Of a stretch of 64,000 nucleotides of DNA, positions 22,982 through 59,659 are shown one piece after another. Below the pieces are notes generated by a model. It searched no databases. It was given only the letters and a program-made list of their open reading frames with translations, and had not been told where the DNA came from. The translations under genes and the position numbers were made by a program. The DNA is from a virus. The stretch is taken from positions 64,001 through 128,000 of IMG/VR virus record IMGVR_UViG_3300042922_000836; one strand, 5' to 3'. Position 1 is the first letter of the stretch. Every line of letters begins with the position of its first letter.

Positions 22982-23479
22982 TTACCTTGATGTATTATTA
23001 TTTTCGGCATTGTTTGAGGAATAATAAGAAATCAAATCCATTGCCATATTAGCTAACGTATCGGCTTGAACATTTCCCTCACAGTCAGCATGTCCAATAC
23101 ATTTTACAAATTCAATATTTTTAAATTGATCTTTTAAATCGATAAGTTCTTGCCAAAGTTCTTTGTTTAATACAGGTTCTTTATTACTGGTTTTCCACCC
23201 ATTTTTAATCCAACCCAATGTCCATTTGTTCATACCATTAATAACATACTGACTATCCATAACAACTTTTACTGGTATATCTTTTCTCTTGATACTTTCT
23301 AAACCTTTGATACAAGCAGTGAGTTCCATTACATTATTTGTGGTATTTAAAGCATTTCCGTTTATCTCTTTTGTTAAATTATTATATTTGAGAAGAACAC
23401 CCCAGCCACCGATATTTGTTTTACTCTGATTTCCTCTGCATCCGCCATCAGCATATATGTAAATTGGTTCTACATTCAT
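22982..23479 (-). CDS. rnhA: ribonuclease HI
   Basis: YADGGCRGN, TNNVMEL, DSQYV, W..NGWK, NKELW, GH....N..AD. Confidence 0.92.
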   Translation of the reverse strand: MNVEPIYIYADGGCRGNQSKTNIGGWGVLLKYNNLTKEINGNALNTTNNVMELTACIKGLESIKRKDIPVKVVMDSQYVINGMNKWTLGWIKNGWKTSNKEPVLNKELWQELIDLKDQFKNIEFVKCIGHADCEGNVQADTLANMAMDLISYYSSNNAENNNTSR

Positions 23480-26964: not shown

Positions 26965-27429
26965 CTAACAAAATGCTACAATGTCTTTAAATTGTGATGT
27001 ATTCTGAACACCTTTGTTATAAGCCATTATTGTTATAGGATTCTGAAATGCCATTGCATATGCTATTTTCAATAACTGGTCTTCTGTTAAATGCCCTACA
27101 CATTCTTCAATTTCATTCTGAGTTAAAGTATCTCTGTTTTCTATCATAACTGTTGAGTCTGCTGTAGTACCAGCAATTTCACCCGCTATGTAGTTTACAT
27201 GTGATGGAGAAGGTTTGCCCCATCTTTTTGAGGTTATCGGGAAAGCTTCAACTACATCAGAAAAATAATTAAACTTGTTGTTAGAAATTATAACGTACAA
27301 ATGTCTTCCCACATATTTTCTGTTTCCGTTAGAACCTTCTCTCTCTACCGTTGCCCAAACTACATCACCAATTTTGTATGATGTTTTTTTTCTTATGTTG
27401 TTATTCAAGGGGTATACCCCTCCTTTCAA
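26965..27429 (-). CDS. PemK/MazF-family protein (orphan)
   Basis: GDVVWA, GRHLYVIISNNKFN, PITSK, STVMIE, VGHLT; true start probably a few codons downstream. Confidence 0.8.
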   Translation of the reverse strand: MKGGVYPLNNNIRKKTSYKIGDVVWATVEREGSNGNRKYVGRHLYVIISNNKFNYFSDVVEAFPITSKRWGKPSPSHVNYIAGEIAGTTADSTVMIENRDTLTQNEIEECVGHLTEDQLLKIAYAMAFQNPITIMAYNKGVQNTSQFKDIVAFC

Positions 27430-46492: not shown

Positions 46493-47829
46493 ACTGATAC
46501 CTCACGTTCAATTAATTTCATGTTTTCCATATAATTATTTAATTCCTCATAAGAAGTATCTTCAAAAATATCTTCCCATTTTGTGGAGCTTATCATTTTC
46601 AGATTAATTTTTTTAGCATATCTGCAAATCGTATCAACGAATTGTAATGTAGCTTTAAGTGTACTAATATTTAATGTACCCTTGAAAATACGGAACTCAA
46701 TTGTATTTCTGTTTTCAAGATTTATAGCTTGATACCTATTACCCTTGCAATATTTTACTTTATCGCACATTGTATATTCATTATCGTATGTATCATAAGA
46801 TAATTCATTTTTTCTTGCCCATTCATATAATTTGTTTACATTTCTTCGAGAGAATTTAACAACATTTGTGTCCCAAAACCTATTTATTAATAAAATAAGT
46901 TTTGCTATGTTTAGATCTTGAGTAACCTCATTTTGACCGAAAAATTTTCGACTAACATGAACATGTAAACCACATGTATTTGTTTCATGCGACTTAAAGC
47001 CATTTTCCTTGCAAATATCAGCAATTTTATCCCAACCTAAATCATCCATATGATAATCAAGGGAGGCTGGGTGCGAAACAATTTCAAAACCATGATTAAG
47101 ACTTCCATCATGTTTACAATAAATATCATCAGTCATATCTGTTAATCTTTTAGCAATTCTATTTGGTTCATCACCATCATCAACTTCCAGTTCAACACCC
47201 ATATATAAATTATCTATTGGATTACCTAAAAATTCTGGATCTGGTTTATAACCATGGTTTCTAATACTTGATCTTTCAATATTATCATAACAATTATTAC
47301 AATAATATTCTTCTGTTTCATCATCATAATTTGCATCATCATTTTGTATAACATCATCACAACTGTGGCATTGAGTCCAATTACCACTACAGCTATCACA
47401 TATTATTAAGTTTGTGTCATAAGTTATATATGCATAAGAATAATATCTACCGCAATCAGCACACTGATAATAGTCACCAGCACAACGATCACATACATGT
47501 TTTTCATGGTTTGTACCATAATTTATAATTTCATAATCATTTGTTATTTCACCGCAGTCTTCACAAGTTATACATGAATCATTATCATAACAACCTTGAC
47601 AAACATAATCATTATTGTGTTCATCATAACACGCATCTTCTTCTTTAACAAATTCACCACATTCTCTGCATTTAATATAACCCATTCTTTCAGAACATTC
47701 ACAACACAATTCATCACCGTCTTCAGTAGTTATATAATCGCCATCTTCACAAACACAACCACATTCGGTGCATATAATATCATTGTTTTCCATTTCCTCA
47801 TTGTTTTCAATTATTTCGTTGTTTTTCAT
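46483..47829 (-). CDS. amidoligase (COOH-NH2 ligase, Amidoligase_2) with N-terminal Cys-rich repeats
   Basis: GVELEV, DGSL, FEIVSHP, CGLHVHVS, RYQAIN, TIEFRIFKGT; about ten CxxC pairs at N-terminus. Confidence 0.85.
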   Translation of the reverse strand: MKNNEIIENNEEMENNDIICTECGCVCEDGDYITTEDGDELCCECSERMGYIKCRECGEFVKEEDACYDEHNNDYVCQGCYDNDSCITCEDCGEITNDYEIINYGTNHEKHVCDRCAGDYYQCADCGRYYSYAYITYDTNLIICDSCSGNWTQCHSCDDVIQNDDANYDDETEEYYCNNCYDNIERSSIRNHGYKPDPEFLGNPIDNLYMGVELEVDDGDEPNRIAKRLTDMTDDIYCKHDGSLNHGFEIVSHPASLDYHMDDLGWDKIADICKENGFKSHETNTCGLHVHVSRKFFGQNEVTQDLNIAKLILLINRFWDTNVVKFSRRNVNKLYEWARKNELSYDTYDNEYTMCDKVKYCKGNRYQAINLENRNTIEFRIFKGTLNISTLKATLQFVDTICRYAKKINLKMISSTKWEDIFEDTSYEELNNYMENMKLIEREVSVCV

Positions 47830-51548: not shown

Positions 51549-54128
51549 TCATTTAAGTAACAATTTCACAACTTCTTCCGCAATACATAAATGACTGTCA
51601 CCCAAAACATTTATAACCCTTTGATAATCATTATCATAGGTTACAATAACAGCCTCTGTCAAATTATAAAGTTTATCACTAAAACGATTAAGTTTATATT
51701 CATAATCATTTTTGTATTCAAGCTTTTTCAAACCTCTTTCGCCTTTGAGAGCCTCAGACAATTTTTCAACAAACTGTCTTTTAGCCTCAAATTCTTCTTT
51801 ATTCTCAATTTTTTCGGTTTCAGTTAATTTTTCGTACATATTATCAATCACCATTCTTAATTTATTTTATTTGATAGGTCATCAATATCAAACATTGCTT
51901 TACTACCGTTCTGTAAATAATACAGCACAGCTTCATAAGCTTCAATCGCACCTTTACAATTATTATACATTGCAACAACTTGCGGATTTTTATCATTTTC
52001 AAAATCTTTGGCATACTTTACCTGTTTTTCCATTGCTTTTTTAATGATAATTTTAAGTTCTGACATTGACTTAGCCATATATTTTAATCTCCTTAAATTA
52101 TTTAATAGAAATAAGTCGCATTTTTTTCATTTTCATTTTATTGTCTGGAAATTCCTCATGGTAAATATTTTTCATTTTTTTAATTGCATCACCAACATTT
52201 TTTGCAGTTATTTTGTATGGATTAGATTCTATGTAGCCTATAAATTTTTGCATATTTACATTCCCCTTTCATTTACATAACAATTAAGATTAAATATTCC
52301 TTACCTTAAATCATTTTCTAAACAATCAACAATACATTTTGCTATAATATGTTTATCATATTCACACCAACGATTTCGACCTAAAACTCCCAATCCATTA
52401 CTTGAATAATCTTTTGTATCTTTTGCATATCGGTACATTATTTTATTATGTAAAGAATTACAACATGACCTTTCAGTTGTGAGATATACCACTTTGTTAT
52501 TAACTGGATTTTTTACAAATCCACTGCAACCTCTTTTTTCACCATTAATTATGATATTTTTAAGAGAATATTCAAATCCATCATTAATATTTTTTACCGA
52601 ATTTTTAATTGTTGTTGCTAAAAGAATTTCCTCATAATTAAGTTTCATTAATCAACCAGCTCCTTCATCATTTCATTTAATGCATTATAATCTAAATTAC
52701 CGCTTATATATTTTATATGGTCTGGTGTTTTGTCATATTGCATACCCATATGTTTTATAAAGCTTGAATAAGGCTTTTTTGACTCCTTGTGATTTTTCAT
52801 AAAATCAACTGCACTGCGATATAAAGGTTCTTCATTGTTTATCCATAATGAAACATTCCAAGTTGACTGATTTCTCCAACCATTGTAGTCTGTATTTTCC
52901 ATATTAGCACCTCATTAAAAATTTTTATCTACAATCATATAACGTTTAAGATGATTAATTCCTTACGTTATTTTTTCTTTACAGGTTTTACATTTTTATA
53001 AGCTATTAAATTTATGTAACCTATATATATATTTTTATCATAATATTCATTCATCATTATGTCGTGTAATTTATCATTTGCCTCATCATAATTTTTTGCG
53101 GTTATATTGTATTTGTCAAAATTTATAATGCCAATATATTTTCTCATATATTTGCCATTTCGTAATATTCTTCAATTTCGGTTGTCGGAAATTTATTTGC
53201 AAAATAATTCGCATTATCATTATCAAAATCGTAAATCATTGAGCCTAAAGACATACCGTCTTTAACGATATATGTTATCGTTTCATCAAAAATTGCATAT
53301 GCTTTAGCCATTATATATGCAGTAAAACTATCTTCAAAATATCCTATGACCGACATACCAAGTGAATTATTTTCATCATCGAATTTTATTTTTGTTACTT
53401 TATACATATATTTTATCTCCTATACAAATACATTCATCTTCCATGATACCGTCAAGCCATTCTAAAAGCTGTTTTTCATTTTTAAAATATAAAGGAAGAG
53501 CCAAACCGTCTGCATAAACTCTTAAAGAGTCTTTATCGGACTCAATAGGATCGAGAGCATAACCCATTGTTTCAAGTTTTTTAATTGTTGAATTTTTCAA
53601 TTTTACTGCCATGATTTATTACCTCATTATTTTAAATTTAATTGTAGGATGATTTTTCAACCACCCTACAATCATATAACATTTATATTAATAATTTCCT
53701 TACATTGTCAATTTATCGATTTTTGCTTTGAGGATTTCTTTTCTTTCAGAAATTTTATTAATTTCAGTTCTTATATCATTTAACATAGACATAAATTCAG
53801 CTAAAACTGAACCATCGAATGAATTATCAATTACTGAAAAGAACCGTTTATATTCAAATAATCTTACTTCATTAGTTCCCAATTTTTGATTGATTTTATC
53901 ATTTAATTTTTCAAACAAATAGAAAAGATGAGATTCTTCTACTTCCATAATTTCGTTTTTTAAGCGATTCATGTCTTCAGAATTATAACCAAGGTCTTTC
54001 AATGTATCATATACACCGTCATAATAGCTTTGATATGCAAGATAATCATCATCGTGTTCTTTTTCCTTATACATTCCGTAAGCATTTTTGAATCTTTTTT
54101 CAATTTGCGATTTCTGTTTTTTTGTCAT
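51549..54128 (-). CDS. run of small hypothetical proteins (51549-51854, 51857-52078, 52301-52648, 52648-52902, 53144-53407, 53400-53612, 53700-54128)
   Basis: one or two genes per element-bounded unit, with RBSs. Confidence 0.6.
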
Positions 54129-54930
54129 GGTAAAACCACCTTTAAAAAATTTTATTTACATTTATATAACATTCAGAATTAAATATTCCTTACAAACAAC
54201 ATTTTCGCCTCATCAACATATTTATACTGATTTTGAACAGTCAACCATAAGGTAGATGTTTTAAGCGAGGTATCTATCTTTGCGTATGCATCCGCAAAGT
54301 GTTGTTCAACCTCTAAATTCGGAGTCGCATATATTCTTATATATTCATCCCTTTCTTTTAAATTTCGGTACTACACGCAGTTACTTTCACTGCCCTCATC
54401 CTCTATCGGCTCGTCAGCCTCACCTCTACCTCGTACCATTTTAACCTCTTTCATTAATTTGTTTATTGATTTTAATTATTTATTCAGTAAAAGTGTTTCA
54501 TAAAAATCACCCCTTTTGCTTGATAAATTTGGCGAAATCGTCATCAATATTCATCATACTACAATTCAAAACTCATTCTATAATTCATCATTTTTCCATT
54601 TAAATTAAACTACCACTTGATAACCACCCTCTTTCAATTATGTAATTTTAAAAATCTTTAATTCCTACTAATTTTTTTCATAGAAATCACCTCTTTCACT
54701 TATATAACGTTTCAAACATTTAATTCCTTACCAAGTCATAAAACCACCCCTTTAAAGAATTTTTGCATGGATTATAAAACAATCATCTTTATTTCCCAAC
54801 AGATGAATACACCGTTGAATTTTGTTTTACATTTATATAACGTTTGCTTTGAGTATTTCCTTACGGTAAATTATCCGTACAATCGAAGGCTTGAAGATTT
54901 ATTTCCTCAAGCCATCTCAACACCTATAAT

Positions 54931-55493: not shown

Positions 55494-55823
55494 TTACGCA
55501 ACGATTTCAAGGACTTTCATTCGGTCAGCCAATATCCATTGACCGCCTTGTGACTCAGGTCTATCATATGTAGAAAAATTTTCAACTTCGACTTTTACCC
55601 AAACTCTCGCACAGCCATTTTTAGGATTTTTACTTAAATGTGGTGCATATGGTGTAAAGGTACAATGCCATCCTTGACGAACCGCAAAACCTTTTGTCGG
55701 AATACATTCAGACTTCAACCATTGACCAACAGGAACAACATTTTTTGCACCAATAAACAAAGCACCCAGAGTTCCGTTTTTTCTTAATTTCATCAGTTTA
55801 TAAGCTATCATTTTCAAAACCAA
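55494..55823 (-). CDS. hypothetical protein
   Basis: bounded by elements at 55846 and 55468; stop inside element. Confidence 0.65.
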   Translation of the reverse strand: MVLKMIAYKLMKLRKNGTLGALFIGAKNVVPVGQWLKSECIPTKGFAVRQGWHCTFTPYAPHLSKNPKNGCARVWVKVEVENFSTYDRPESQGGQWILADRMKVLEIVA

Positions 55824-55871: not shown

Positions 55872-56144
55872 TTACGATATATAGCAATTATTTTCGATTC
55901 TGCCTGTTTGCATGGTATACCATGACATTACAAGCACATGATTATCAGTTTCCGCAATATCAATTTTTGTAGAGCCTTCGCTACCGCAAAATATTCCGCA
56001 AAAAGGTGTTCCATCCTCATTGACCATAGTCAAGCCATTGTTTGCCAGAATTGTCTGTACCTCGTCAACTGCGACCTCATCACGATAGATCACATCAGAC
56101 AACTGATAATTACATTTTTTTATTGCCAACTTTAAACTTCCCAT
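55872..56144 (-). CDS. hypothetical protein
   Basis: bounded by elements at 56183 and 55846; stop inside element. Confidence 0.65.
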   Translation of the reverse strand: MGSLKLAIKKCNYQLSDVIYRDEVAVDEVQTILANNGLTMVNEDGTPFCGIFCGSEGSTKIDIAETDNHVLVMSWYTMQTGRIENNCYIS

Positions 56145-56231
56145 AATAGTTACCTCTTTTTTAATAATTTTGTGTTACACTTATATAACAACAGAAAATT
56201 AGTTTTCCTTACGCAAAATTATCTGCATAAT

Positions 56232-56255
56232 AAAAAGCATGAAAATATCATGCTC
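56232..56255 (-). terminator. rho-independent terminator
   Basis: AGCATGA-N5-TCATGCT followed by TTTT on minus strand. Confidence 0.55.
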
Positions 56256-56875
56256 TTGATTATGTATAAAATTTGTAATAATCGGCATGTAAGGCAATAG
56301 CAATCTCTATTTACTACTGCCTTATATGGAAACTAACAGATAACTGTTTGAATTTTTCCATACTACACCGACTACCTTTTTTTCATAGATTTTATCACAT
56401 CCTTTCATTGTACTCATCCCCATGACTTATAAACCAAACTTTAAATCATTATGTAAATTTTATTTGATTTTTTTGTTTGTTTTATCACTCTTTACTCTTG
56501 ACCGCTAAGAGTAAAGACTCGCCCACTGTTGCCAGTAAGAGAGTTATCGCCATGGGTACATTTTAACGAATTTTTCCAGAAACTAAGGTTATCGTGATTC
56601 TTACCCTATAGCGGTCAAAACAAAATACTTGCAATTACTTAATTTTGTCTATAGTTCCCATAAAAGGGAGTAAGAAAGTCATTCCTTCCAAAGTTTGCCA
56701 TACAGGAGATTCTGTGAAAATTTCGCCAAAATGATGATTATTTGTTTGGTACAGTATTCGCTATTACGTGGCAACCGTATTAGTACCATTTAAGCTATAA
56801 ATTTTTGTAATGATTTTTTGCATAATTTAAAACACTAAATATTTTTAATATTTTAAACTACATAAAAAAACTTTA
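56232..56875 (-). ncRNA. putative structured non-coding RNA
   Basis: no ORF of 60 aa or more; lies between tandem promoter-like array and terminator; several helices whose mismatches read as G-U pairs on the minus strand. Confidence 0.5.
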
Positions 56876-56880
56876 CATTT

Positions 56881-57233
56881 ATATAACACTTGAAAATCAT
56901 TTTTCCTTACAAGCTTTTTTTACTGATTTTTAAATGTTTATTGCTTACGATAATATAACATTTAAAAACTTAATTTCCTTACATTGAATTTTTATTGATT
57001 TTTCCATGCAATTATATAACATTTATAATCTTAATTTCCTTACATATTGCATTTAAGGAAATTTTAAAAATATACTTTACAATTATATAACACTTATTTT
57101 TTATGATTCCTTACAGATCGTAGTGTAACACTTTTGTCACACATTTTTAACTAAAATTTACCGATTGCATATTTGAATTATTTGTAAATTAATCTTTACA
57201 ATAATATAACACTTAAAAACACTGATTCCTTAC
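56881..57233 (-). repeat. tandem array of five 30-bp elements
   Basis: copies at 56881, 56953, 57014, 57085, 57204 separated by 42, 31, 41 and 89 nt of non-coding DNA. Confidence 0.9.
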
Positions 57234-57261
57234 ACCTAAAATTTACCAGTAAAAATATGGT

Positions 57262-57289
57262 AAAAAATAGGAGGCATCACTGCCTCCTA
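57262..57289 (-). terminator. rho-independent terminator of sigma-like gene
   Basis: TAGGAGGCA-N4-TGCCTCCTA then TTTTT on minus strand. Confidence 0.8.
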
Positions 57290-57312
57290 AATCTTACCAG
57301 TATCGTCTGGGA

Positions 57313-58701
57313 TTATTTACCAAAATGTTTTTTAACCATTTTTTGGAATTTTTCTATTAAATACCATTTTTCAAGCTTGTTACAATATATGGTATATAAG
57401 GAAATATTATCCATATATTCAATATCACTTTCTGTGTATTCCGACTCTTGACCGACTTTTAAATTATTATACACTTCGTGAGATTCAAGCCACTTGAAAT
57501 AATTTACCATATTATGGTTAAAAGCACCGTCTATCACATGGTGTATATTAAAGTTACCGTCTTTTATCGCAGTATGTGAATTTTCGAGTTTGTCAAGGAA
57601 CTTTGTACCCTTTGTGACTTTTTTGTGTCCTGTCATCAATTCTTCAATAGCTTGATAATCTTTACGTCTGTATGACTTAATTGCGTCAATATCTTTAAAT
57701 TTCAATGCCACTTCACGAATTCGTGACATATGACCGCTTACGGTCTTCATACTGCATCCAACTTTTTCCGCTATTGCCAGATCCTGCCAGCCATATGACC
57801 GATATTTTAAAATTTGTGCCTGTCTGGGAGTAATTTCCTTTAAAAAGGAATTAATTAACTCATTTTCTCCAGATTTTTCCAGTAGCCTGTCAATCTCGGA
57901 ATTGACACAAATCTGGGAATAAATACCATTTTCACCGTTCTCATCAAGTGTGTCTTCAATGTAAAGTTTTCTTGGAACATAATCAACTTTTCTGTGAAGT
58001 TTTTCTTCCTCAATTAAACTGTCAATATTTACCAGTGTAACATTTTTATCGGCAATCATGCTGGCAATCTCTTCCAGTTTAGCGGTTGAAACTTCCACTT
58101 TTTGGTGCTTTAGGATTTTTCTGGCAATAATCAAATTATTGTAAAGTTTGGTATTTTCGGTATTTTTTACCATTTTATTATTTCCGTATAAGGAATTTTT
58201 TACCATATTACAAGCTTTTAAAAATATTGATTTCATGGTATTTTTTGCCAGTATCATATCAGCATATTCACTGGAATTTAATTCCAGTCCGTCTTTTAAT
58301 TTTTGCTCCAGTTTATACCAGTAATTTAAGGTTTCAATGGGTATTTTTACCAGTTCTTCATACATTGCTAAATAGGCAATATTTACCAGATCCATAGAGT
58401 CATTGTTGATGCTTGACAAATTTTGGAAATTATTTACCATTTTAAGGTTATGAACTGACGGATTTTTTGACATAATATATTTGCAAGAATAACATGCACA
58501 TGTCACAGAAATGTCATATAGAATTTTCATTCTTAAAAGCGGGTATTTGGTAAACTTTTCCTTAATTTCTGCATTTACTTCTGCCAAAGTTTGGTAATTT
58601 TCAGGTACTACTAAATTTTCCATATTCTGGGCGATTAAAGGGTTTTTGGAATTTTCTTCCAGTGTGAGATTCTCCGAGTAAATTTTTACAGTTTTTTCCA
58701 T
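57313..58701 (-). CDS. large divergent sigma70-family (ECF/group 5-like) factor or LuxR-HTH regulator
   Basis: region-2-like DSMDLVNIAYLAMYEE and region-4 HTH ITPRQAQILKYRSYGWQDLAIAEKVGCSMKTVSGHMSRIR; AAGGA RBS. Confidence 0.65.
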   Translation of the reverse strand: MEKTVKIYSENLTLEENSKNPLIAQNMENLVVPENYQTLAEVNAEIKEKFTKYPLLRMKILYDISVTCACYSCKYIMSKNPSVHNLKMVNNFQNLSSINNDSMDLVNIAYLAMYEELVKIPIETLNYWYKLEQKLKDGLELNSSEYADMILAKNTMKSIFLKACNMVKNSLYGNNKMVKNTENTKLYNNLIIARKILKHQKVEVSTAKLEEIASMIADKNVTLVNIDSLIEEEKLHRKVDYVPRKLYIEDTLDENGENGIYSQICVNSEIDRLLEKSGENELINSFLKEITPRQAQILKYRSYGWQDLAIAEKVGCSMKTVSGHMSRIREVALKFKDIDAIKSYRRKDYQAIEELMTGHKKVTKGTKFLDKLENSHTAIKDGNFNIHHVIDGAFNHNMVNYFKWLESHEVYNNLKVGQESEYTESDIEYMDNISLYTIYCNKLEKWYLIEKFQKMVKKHFGK

Positions 58702-58787
58702 TTTTTAGTACTTCCTTTTTTAAAATATAATTTTAGTCAAAGGTTATAATTGCATATTCAATTTTCAACTAAACCTTCGCCATGACT

Positions 58788-58816
58788 ATAGTATCACATT
58801 AAAGTTATTAAGTCAA
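58788..58816 (-). promoter_or_regulatory. sigmaA promoter of sigma-like gene
   Basis: TTGACT-N17-TACTAT with extended TG. Confidence 0.65.
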
Positions 58817-59630
58817 TAGGCAATTTTTACCAGTAATAATGTTTCCGATGGTAAATAATGGTATTTTTTTATAAATCACCCGAAGTCGCCTAAAATTTAC
58901 CAGTTTTTTAAATGGAAATATATGGTAATGCGACCTTTTGCTGTAAAGTCGAATTATACGGGGTATTTACCATTTTTTTAGGAGGTTTTCCGACCGAAAA
59001 TGAGGATTAGTAGGTACTTCTCATCGATCCAGTCCTTCCCAGAACCGATTGATTTGTCACTAAACAGCACTTTTCTTTCGGAAATTTCTTCGGTGCAAAG
59101 ATCATCACCAATACACTTCAAACTCTCATTGTAGTCACTAAAAACCGATTTTAACAGCACACAGAAATAGCCTTGTTTTTGGCTGTTTTTCACCTCTGTT
59201 TTGTCTTGTTTTGTGCGGATTCACATTGTTTTAAAGCTGAAACCCTCATGTTTCCTGTGTTTTATCGAAGATTACAGGTGGACAGGGGGTTATTTGTCAT
59301 TTATGGGGGTGTATTTTGAGCAGTAACCTACCTATTATATAGGAAGATAAAACATACAGCCAACTATAATACCCGCCTTAAATACGAACACAAGCTGTCA
59401 GGAACGGTTTTAAACGCACTCTATAACGCATAAAGTAATAATGTATAAACAGCACAAATACAGTCTGAATACTCGGTCAACAACCAACCTTATATATATG
59501 TAAAGCACTGTATCAGTTCACAGCAAAAGAAAATCCATAATCGCTGAAAGCCTTACAACATCAATGTTTATATAATGTATGTTCAACGTTGATAATAATA
59601 ATAGTTCACAAATATTTCACAAATACCCTA

Positions 59631-59659
59631 TTGACTTACCACCTATACTATGATATAAT
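59631..59659 (+). promoter_or_regulatory. sigmaA promoter of recombinase gene
   Basis: TTGACT-N17-TATAAT with extended TG; ATTACTT-N4-C motif at 59666-59677. Confidence 0.8.

Follow-up and report, generated by a model that had tools for sequence, protein, structure and literature searches.

What is made from the largest ORF-free gap in the genome of a large uncultivated phage? The gap lies in an IMG/VR virus record of 137,094 bp with direct terminal repeats and a G+C content of ~28%, of which we analyzed bases 64001-128000 (hereafter, the window; 64,000 nt, with all coordinates given in window positions unless stated otherwise). A first-pass annotation had proposed that an ORF-poor stretch in the window encodes a structured ncRNA driven by a tandem promoter array, and every feature that it listed was found where it had been placed. 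Here, we ask whether this stretch represents a non-coding gene in its own right or, alternatively, the leader of an operon, a DNA-level element, or the remnant of a gene. The sequence supports the existence of a discrete minus-strand non-coding unit between the promoter array and a terminator, and we give somewhat better than even chances to the reading that 56228-56873 is a self-contained gene for a structured ncRNA of ~645 nt (Table 1).

Up to ~58700, the genes in the window are encoded on the minus strand; from 59705 onwards, they are encoded on the plus strand. In a PHROG scan, positions 1-36000 matched a PolC-like DNA polymerase, a primase, a helicase, an RNA ligase, an RNase H, and NAMPT; positions 36000-58700, which contain many small ORFs, gave almost no matches. 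Based on the polymerase, the closest deposited phage is 43.7% identical (origin, a human faecal sample), and Geobacillus and Bacillus siphoviruses are ~40% identical. Homologues of the Ant-like protein are found mostly in Clostridia genomes, with a best identity of 39%. A Bacillota (Firmicute) host is weakly indicated. Among the other genes on the minus strand, we note a MazF-like ORF (phrog_1936; 26965-27429) and an RNase H-like ORF (phrog_531; 22982-23479), both of which are distant from the stretch analyzed here.

Promoters, terminator, and coding potential

The phage-specific motif TAAGGAA-N16-TTATATWA has 17 matches in the window, all 17 on the minus strand between 36329 and 57232, compared with 0.01 expected from 100 shuffles. 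A looser pattern has 18 matches in the whole genome and none on the plus strand; 17 are located within the same interval, and one is an outlier outside the early region. The -10 part of this putative promoter is TGTTATATAA, an extended -10, and the -35 part is GTAAGGAA, which is dissimilar to TTGACA. Ten of the 17 promoters are followed, after 20-112 nt, by the start of an SD-led ORF with a length of at least 30 aa. No such ORF follows the promoters at 54700-54730 and 54833-54863 for >570 nt or the five tandem promoters at 56879-57232 (P1 to P5) for >730 nt. Below the former two, at 54370-54770 (minus strand), four strong SD and start-codon units open mini-ORFs of 3, 7, 3, and 5 codons and are followed by a 22-aa acidic ORF (54439-54371); these units may be minigenes or decayed gene starts.

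The description of the stretch as ORF-poor and lying between five promoter-like elements and a terminator is borne out by the 17 motif matches and by a hairpin of -12.4 kcal/mol with a U-run, although a terminator scan listed this hairpin on the plus strand. We place the inferred 5' end of the RNA ~7 nt downstream of the proximal promoter's -10 and its 3' end in the terminator U-run. Because five promoters are stacked before the RNA, it should be the most strongly transcribed unit of the TAAGGAA class; to the extent that promoters are a guide, the RNA would be abundant and made early in infection. Among public sequencing runs, the sequence was listed for a single DNA run, which is possibly its source, and for no RNA run; the contigs of that DNA run returned two spurious pieces of 22-25 nt and did not cover the stretch.

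A promoter array at this position could instead serve a long structured 5' leader of an early operon, with read-through into the 90-aa gene (55872-56144) and beyond. According to this model, the hairpins would function in processing, stability, or put-like antitermination, and the five promoters would represent the main early cluster. A precedent is provided by T7, in which the tandem early promoters A1-A3 are followed by an untranslated structured leader of several hundred nucleotides with an RNase III site. Consistent with a leader, the promoter array heads the early gene block, and the terminator of the RNA is the weaker of the two that were measured (-12.4 vs -17.3 kcal/mol). However, the next gene has a full promoter 20 nt past this terminator and the following genes likewise have their own, making a shared leader unnecessary. 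We therefore regard a leader as unlikely.

The longest ORF on either strand of the stretch is 36 aa, and stops abound in all six frames. Together with the promoter array, the stretch forms the largest gap without ORFs of at least 60 aa in the genome (1112 nt, with four gaps of at least 400 nt in 137 kb). The RNA contains no GGAG or GAGG anywhere, and 7 of the 8 neighboring genes checked have strong SDs, of the AAGAGGT or AAAGGTGG type. The only starts with an SD-like motif are those of a 15-aa ORF, for which the SD is spaced by 12 nt and lies inside a 12-bp helix, and of a 28-aa ORF (56408-56322, minus strand), for which a weak GGGGA is located 8 nt upstream; the SDs of both are poor or sequestered, although translation of the 28-aa ORF is conceivable. 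Might the stretch nevertheless carry very small peptides (28-36 aa), or be the remnant of a decayed gene, with a stability that is fortuitous or secondary? Minus-strand ORFs of 36 aa (56679-56789) and 33/28 aa (56322-56423) are present, and very short SD-led ORFs exist in the nearby early region. However, a proper SD is missing from all of the small ORFs, the GGGGA of the 28-aa ORF is buried in an 8-bp helix with a predicted pairing probability (P) of 1.0, and the crowding of stops in six frames argues against decayed genes. We consider this explanation highly improbable. Altogether, and judged from sequence alone, the stretch has the promoter, the terminator, and the lack of a translatable ORF that characterize an independent ncRNA unit.

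Upstream of the promoter array, and separated from it by a terminator, lies the gene for an orphan 462-aa protein with a helix-turn-helix (HTH) motif. We suggest that this protein is a candidate factor for the TAAGGAA promoters. Among the Pfam models, GerE alone reached the cut-off; the region 4 match, Sigma70_r4_2, was weak (E 0.045), and sigma-70 region 2 gave no match. A search against the PDB by sequence returned nothing relevant, and look-alike clusters in the Atlas carry Sigma70_r4/ECF, which we take as a lead only. Among 5.8 billion proteins (searched at 254-809 residues), the protein found itself alone; no relative was present in JGI metagenomes or in any of the 20 IMG/VR relatives examined. 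A canonical TTGACT-17-TACTAT promoter with a TG precedes the 462-aa gene (58788-58816, minus strand), and a canonical TTGACT-17-TATAAT promoter with a TG (59631-59659, plus strand) precedes a gene for a 263-aa tyrosine-recombinase-like protein. Both sigma-A-like promoters point outwards from the divergent region. The functions of the promoters, the start and timing of transcription, and the role of the 462-aa protein are predictions throughout.

Two further observations concern this region. The sequence TTTACCAGT is present in five copies in the 137-kb genome, all in plus orientation and all within 1.7 kb around the gene for the 462-aa HTH protein (57242-58896); these copies could be an operator or iteron set. 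Moreover, a 109-aa early protein (phrog_12224; 55494-55823, minus strand) has homologues with 55-64% identity in T7-like coliphages, in some of which they are encoded in the first 2 kb of the record, and also in Cronobacter and Pectobacterium myophages. This distribution points to a widely travelled gene.

Table 1. Features of the predicted ncRNA locus and its upstream region (window coordinates; P, predicted pairing probability)
Feature	Position	Strand	Evidence
Orphan 462-aa protein with LuxR/GerE or sigma-region-4-type HTH	57313..58701	-	Pfam GerE 6.4e-7, Sigma70_r4_2 0.045
Terminator of the 462-aa gene, between gene and promoter array	57268..57289	-	-17.3 kcal/mol
Putative promoter P5 (distal)	57202..57232	-	Motif match
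Putative promoter P4	57083..57113	-	Motif match
Putative promoter P3	57012..57042	-	Motif match
Putative promoter P2	56951..56981	-	Motif match
Putative promoter P1 (proximal), TAAGGAA-N16-TTATATAA	56879..56909	-	Motif match
Predicted non-coding structured RNA, ~645 nt	56228..56873	-	Without credible ORF; fold z -7.8
5'-terminal A/U-rich hairpin (19 + 6 bp) that starts ~5 nt past the putative 5' end	56814..56869	-	P 0.95 and 0.70
Central domain, 12+5+4-bp closing helix (56711-56733/56559-56580)	56559..56733	-	Closing P 0.93-0.98
Distal partner UUGACCGCUA of the hairpin loop (candidate pseudoknot/kissing site)	56609..56618	-	Exact complement
G+C-rich core, 8-bp closing helix CCCAUGGC/GUCAUGGG	56419..56556	-	P 1.0
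7-nt loop AGCGGUC	56500..56506	-	Unpaired P 0.83-1.0; complements 56610-56616
3' three-way-junction domain, 7+12-bp stem	56265..56387	-	P 0.80-0.96
Intrinsic terminator of the RNA, 10-bp hairpin (56233-56257), then UUUUUAUUA U-run	56228..56262	-	-12.4 kcal/mol
Own putative promoter of the next gene (90 aa, 55872-56144)	56181..56211	-	Motif match; 20 nt past the RNA terminator

Predicted fold of the RNA

The minus-strand RNA (646 nt) has a minimum free energy (MFE) of -174.4 kcal/mol compared with -122.1 +/- 6.7 for 150 dinucleotide shuffles (z -7.8; best shuffle -138.8). Smaller shuffle sets agree, with z -7.6 for 20 shuffles and -7.4 for 12. For 24 control windows (644 nt each) taken from this strand of the phage, the MFE lay between -96 and -133 and z between +1.8 and -4.8; the MFE of the target was -173.3. 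Local z values, calculated in 160-nt windows, were ~0 in the flanking coding sequence and reached -5 to -7 in 56200-56560 and 56720-56960 (-7.2 at 56240-56399, -5.5 at 56400-56559, and -5.7 at 56800-56959). These data support that the predicted structure is exceptional for this phage genome and far beyond chance; they also argue against the idea of decayed genes, for which a z of -7.8 lies beyond the range of the 24 control windows. The plus strand also folds better than its shuffles (MFE -131.3 vs -106.2 +/- 6.1 for 150 shuffles, z -4.1), indicating that part of the folding signal is strand-symmetric. Nevertheless, the minus strand is favored, as the first-pass annotation held, by z (-7.8 vs -4.1) and by the number of G-U pairs (28 in the minus-strand fold vs 13 in the plus-strand fold).

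Two other gaps were inspected for structure. The gap at 51855-52300, considered as a second structured gap, turned out to contain two ordinary small genes (z -1.1). A further ORF-free gap of 434 nt is located outside the window at positions 46547-46980 of the genome and has z values of -4.6 (plus strand) and -4.9 (minus strand).

In the predicted fold, the 5'-terminal hairpin is followed by a central domain, a G+C-rich core, and a 3' three-way-junction domain (Table 1); the fold also has a long-range closing stem. Each of the three domains is closed, with helices of 8-13 bp. Inside the central domain, positions 56581-56710 are predicted with low confidence (P 0.2-0.4) and contain the distal partner of the candidate pseudoknot. 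The core comprises a GCAA-tetraloop hairpin (56517-56544), a 10-11-bp hairpin (56490-56516), and an A-rich hairpin. The 3' domain has hairpins at 56324-56363 (9 bp) and 56291-56323 (13 bp, two G-U), and its 12-, 9-, and 13-bp helices have P >0.9. Three of the four nested helices that had been proposed initially are well supported in the ensemble, i.e., the perfect 11-bp stem 56489-56499/56507-56517 (mean P 0.91), the hairpin 56290-56324 (P 0.91, two G-U pairs), and the helix 56747-56752/56783-56788 (P 0.74). For the fourth, a long-range helix between 56325-56335 and 56652-56662, the complementarity is real (10 Watson-Crick pairs and one U-G on the minus strand), but in the ensemble this helix has P ~0, since 56355-56363 is the local pairing partner of 56324-56332 (P 0.91). 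A single perfect stem is no more than chance would produce, as a perfect inverted repeat of at least 11 nt occurs in 16% of 1000 dinucleotide shuffles. Moreover, the fold is a single-sequence prediction, the details of which may be wrong.

These features also bear on the leader model. The length of the 25-bp 5' hairpin suits an RNase III substrate, as would be expected for a processed leader; however, a closed multi-domain structure of 640 nt with z -7.8 far exceeds the needs of a processing site.

As noted in the first-pass annotation, TTGACCGCTA (56498-56507) in the loop region of the 11-bp stem and TAGCGGTCAA (56609-56618) are exact complements of each other. Among 1000 dinucleotide shuffles, 0.6% contained a GC-rich inverted repeat of 10 nt and 1.5% a hairpin whose entire loop has a distal complement; a complement of this RNA's own 7-nt loop was found in 0.46% of 5000 shuffles. 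Opening the distal site requires 3.5-3.9 kcal/mol, and formation of the 7-bp duplex yields -11.2; the alternative of a nested "switch" is 15 kcal/mol worse than the MFE. Because the opening cost is lower than the gain from the duplex and the nested alternative is this unfavorable, we consider a switch less likely than a pseudoknot or kissing contact. Thus, of the original proposal of a pseudoknot or switch, the loop-to-distal pseudoknot is plausible and energetically affordable, and the nested switch falls away.

The locus might also function as DNA rather than through a stable RNA product, i.e., as a transcription-activated replication origin or as the source of a primer RNA, with the promoters opening the DNA or priming synthesis as in the cases of ColE1 RNA II, the T7 phi1.1A/B origin, and T4 oriF. 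Such a function would fit with the largest ORF-free gap in the genome, the tandem promoters, a phage-encoded RNase H (22982-23479), and a distance of only 2.3 kb to the cumulative GC-skew minimum (genome ~123 kb), where transcription diverges. However, the skew minimum is also the site at which gene orientation switches and is not necessarily an origin; an intrinsic terminator ends the transcript; and the stretch contains neither a DnaA-box-like cluster nor iterons. In addition, the strand asymmetry of the fold (z -7.8 vs -4.1; 28 vs 13 G-U pairs) suggests selection on RNA. We consider an origin or primer function improbable.

Relatives and known RNAs

The first-pass annotation left the RNA without a family, and our searches agree. 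Using cmscan with 4227 Rfam 15 models, we obtained no matches at gathering scores in the window. The ROOL, GOLLD, and OLE models gave no match at E <=10 on either 1601 nt or 646 nt, and the Rfam 15 matches at E <=10 inside 56228-56873 were noise only, with E >=4 (snoR9_plant, mir-4679, and mir-17). Therefore, the RNA is not a member of ROOL, GOLLD, OLE, or another Rfam 15 family, a collection that should include 6S, tmRNA, RNase P, group I/II introns, T-box, riboswitches, phi29 pRNA, HEARO, and ToxI. A tRNA or tmRNA was rejected based on ARAGORN, which found no tRNA genes and no tmRNA in the 64-kb window.

Sequence relatives were sought at several levels. In blastn searches, positions 56150-57300 had no match at 1e-5 among 50,697 phage records, and the RNA alone, at E <=5, matched eight records over 24-50 nt at E 2. 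Via the PolC-like polymerase, we recovered 44 IMG/VR relatives with 43-64% identity in that protein; the nearest contigs have 39-48% G+C and have essentially the replication module alone in common with this phage. The best blastn match of the RNA in 20 of these 44 relatives was a 21-nt A-rich stretch (E 1e-4), the promoter motif with at most one mismatch was present in none of the 20 relatives examined, and a single-sequence covariance model of the 146-nt core gave a best E of 0.044, in a coding region, against 43 of the 44. Three whole relatives share only the replication module, and window positions 28000-58700 gave no more than a few weak matches in them; their ORF-free gaps are unrelated to the ncRNA stretch. 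An exact 27-nt hairpin pattern had no matches in IMG/VR. The promoter pattern matched 56 IMG/VR contigs, with one match per contig, and a two-anchor pseudoknot pattern matched a single contig in JGI metagenomes, which has 45% GC and is otherwise dissimilar; we attribute both results to chance. Among 399 scored genomes of the class of a Clostridium-labelled genome, only A/U-rich matches of 27-52 nt were found, and three genomes with Ant homologues had no match to the RNA. Close relatives may nevertheless exist outside the collections that were searched.

In one of the three whole relatives (G001), we observed a 1.1-kb ORF-poor array with units of ~135 nt (L125:13884-15030). Each unit consists of a GC-rich hairpin followed by ATCTAAA-N4-TTTAG and is without an Rfam match. 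A 523-nt part of the array has z ~ -9 on both strands, and an ORF of 459 aa that resembles reverse transcriptases and has a YSDD motif (L125:10720-12099) is located 1.8 kb upstream of the array.

How does the RNA compare with large RNAs that have been described? ROOL and GOLLD are phage-borne large RNAs in which kissing loops hold nanocages together, and neither a function nor a protein partner is known for them (bioRxiv 10.1101/2024.12.08.627333). The RNA described here resembles them in its size range (~600-800 nt), in being carried by a phage, and in a multi-domain architecture with loop-loop or pseudoknot contacts, which in our case are predicted; it is likewise without an assigned function or partner. 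Unlike ROOL and GOLLD, which are often located near tRNA islands of phages and prophages, it lies in a 64-kb window with 0 tRNA genes, and it has no Rfam 15 match at E <=10 and no homologues in the searches above.

Within the literature considered, the closest functional analogue in print is lnc001 of phage K (Kayvirus), a ~635-nt intergenic minus-strand transcript with its own early promoter and the highest read count; its authors compare it to ROOL and GOLLD and describe its function as not known (PMC9241854). The two RNAs are alike in size, minus-strand location, and possession of an early promoter, which in our case is predicted, and phage K is a large lytic Firmicute phage. However, expression data exist for lnc001, whereas the present RNA is predicted from sequence. 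The two have no sequence similarity (blastn against the phage collection gave the 24-50-nt matches at E 2 only), and lnc001 adjoins a tRNA gene and folds modestly beyond its shuffles (z -2.2 vs -7.8 here). Highly transcribed putative ncRNAs and tandem early promoters are also described for a Listeria P100-like phage (PMC12282133), and candidate structured RNAs in viruses and phages have been surveyed (PMC10690425).

OLE RNA is ~600 nt long and ornate, is found in anaerobic or extremophilic Gram-positive bacteria, and works within an RNP (PMC9723947). The present RNA is similar in length and ornateness; however, OLE is encoded by a bacterial chromosomal gene with oap partner genes, and the present RNA has no Rfam match. 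In its arrangement, the locus is reminiscent of the early promoters of T7, several strong ones of which are stacked at the head of the early region and followed by an untranslated structured RNA. In contrast to the T7 leader, the untranslated part terminates here, and the next gene has its own promoter. The order of promoter, non-coding RNA, terminator, and downstream gene is also that of type III antitoxin (ToxI) loci, and the present locus has the same layout. Unlike ToxI, the RNA contains no 34-36-nt tandem repeats, and the 90-aa protein encoded downstream has no Pfam or PHROG match. TRF finds just two AT-rich 13-nt doublets (scores 36-38) in the RNA, and the initial suggestion of an antitoxin gains no support as far as the ToxI type is concerned.

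Proposed role of the RNA

The best reading of these data is, in our view, that the stretch encodes a structured early RNA that is stable and abundant, acts in trans, and represents a new family. We propose the following model. The 462-aa HTH protein, as the product of the first gene of the leftward arm, would be made first from the canonical TTGACT-17-TACTAT promoter. In the role of a sigma-like subunit or of an activator at the -35 site, it would then enable the TAAGGAA promoters, and the 17 phage-specific promoters would drive ~21 kb of small early genes. The five stacked promoters would lead to mass early production of the RNA, with transcription stopping at the intrinsic terminator, and the terminal hairpins, ~5 nt from the 5' end and in the terminator at the 3' end, would make the RNA long-lived, in an arrangement that is familiar from stable RNAs. 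Finally, the RNA would act in trans by its shape, by binding or sequestering a host or phage protein or by self-assembly.

A guide role, which had also been suggested, is not supported, given the lack of complementarity beyond shuffles to ten early 5'UTRs and the lack of a second match in the phage's own genome. Likewise, antisense pairing was rejected: the duplex energies against the ten early 5'UTRs have z -0.9 to +1.8, and the genome contains no other match. Because there is no antisense signal, we favor a shape-based trans-acting role, which is probably how the RNA functions, while any single role of this kind is much less probable than the existence of the ncRNA gene itself. A CsrA-type GGA sponge was considered and rejected, since the RNA contains seven GGA compared with ~8 expected from its composition (counted by eye). 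More speculatively, the RNA could be the first member of a class of large phage RNAs that self-assemble, a new class in which pairing of AGCGGUC with GACCGCU (7-10 nt) between molecules would generate RNA-only multimers that are mass-produced early from five promoters via a phage-specific factor. The kissing-loop bridges of ROOL and GOLLD serve as the model for such an intermolecular contact; we regard this idea as a long shot.

Altogether, on intrinsic evidence, we conclude that this RNA, the limits of which are well defined, is a real candidate for a new family among the large structured RNAs of phages. Its boundaries are unusually clear, as defined by a five-fold promoter array, a terminator, the lack of coding capacity, and a folding signal that is the strongest in the genome; because of these boundaries and the strong fold, the RNA should be easy to synthesize and examine in vitro. 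Large structured phage ncRNAs such as ROOL, GOLLD, and the lncRNAs of Kayvirus occur in abundance, and a function is not known for any of them; the locus adds a candidate to this group. If our model is correct, then the locus would tie the production of an RNA in large amounts at the onset of infection to a promoter class specific to this phage and, perhaps, to an orphan factor of the sigma or LuxR type; such a link would suggest an RNA-based function in host takeover or counter-defence.
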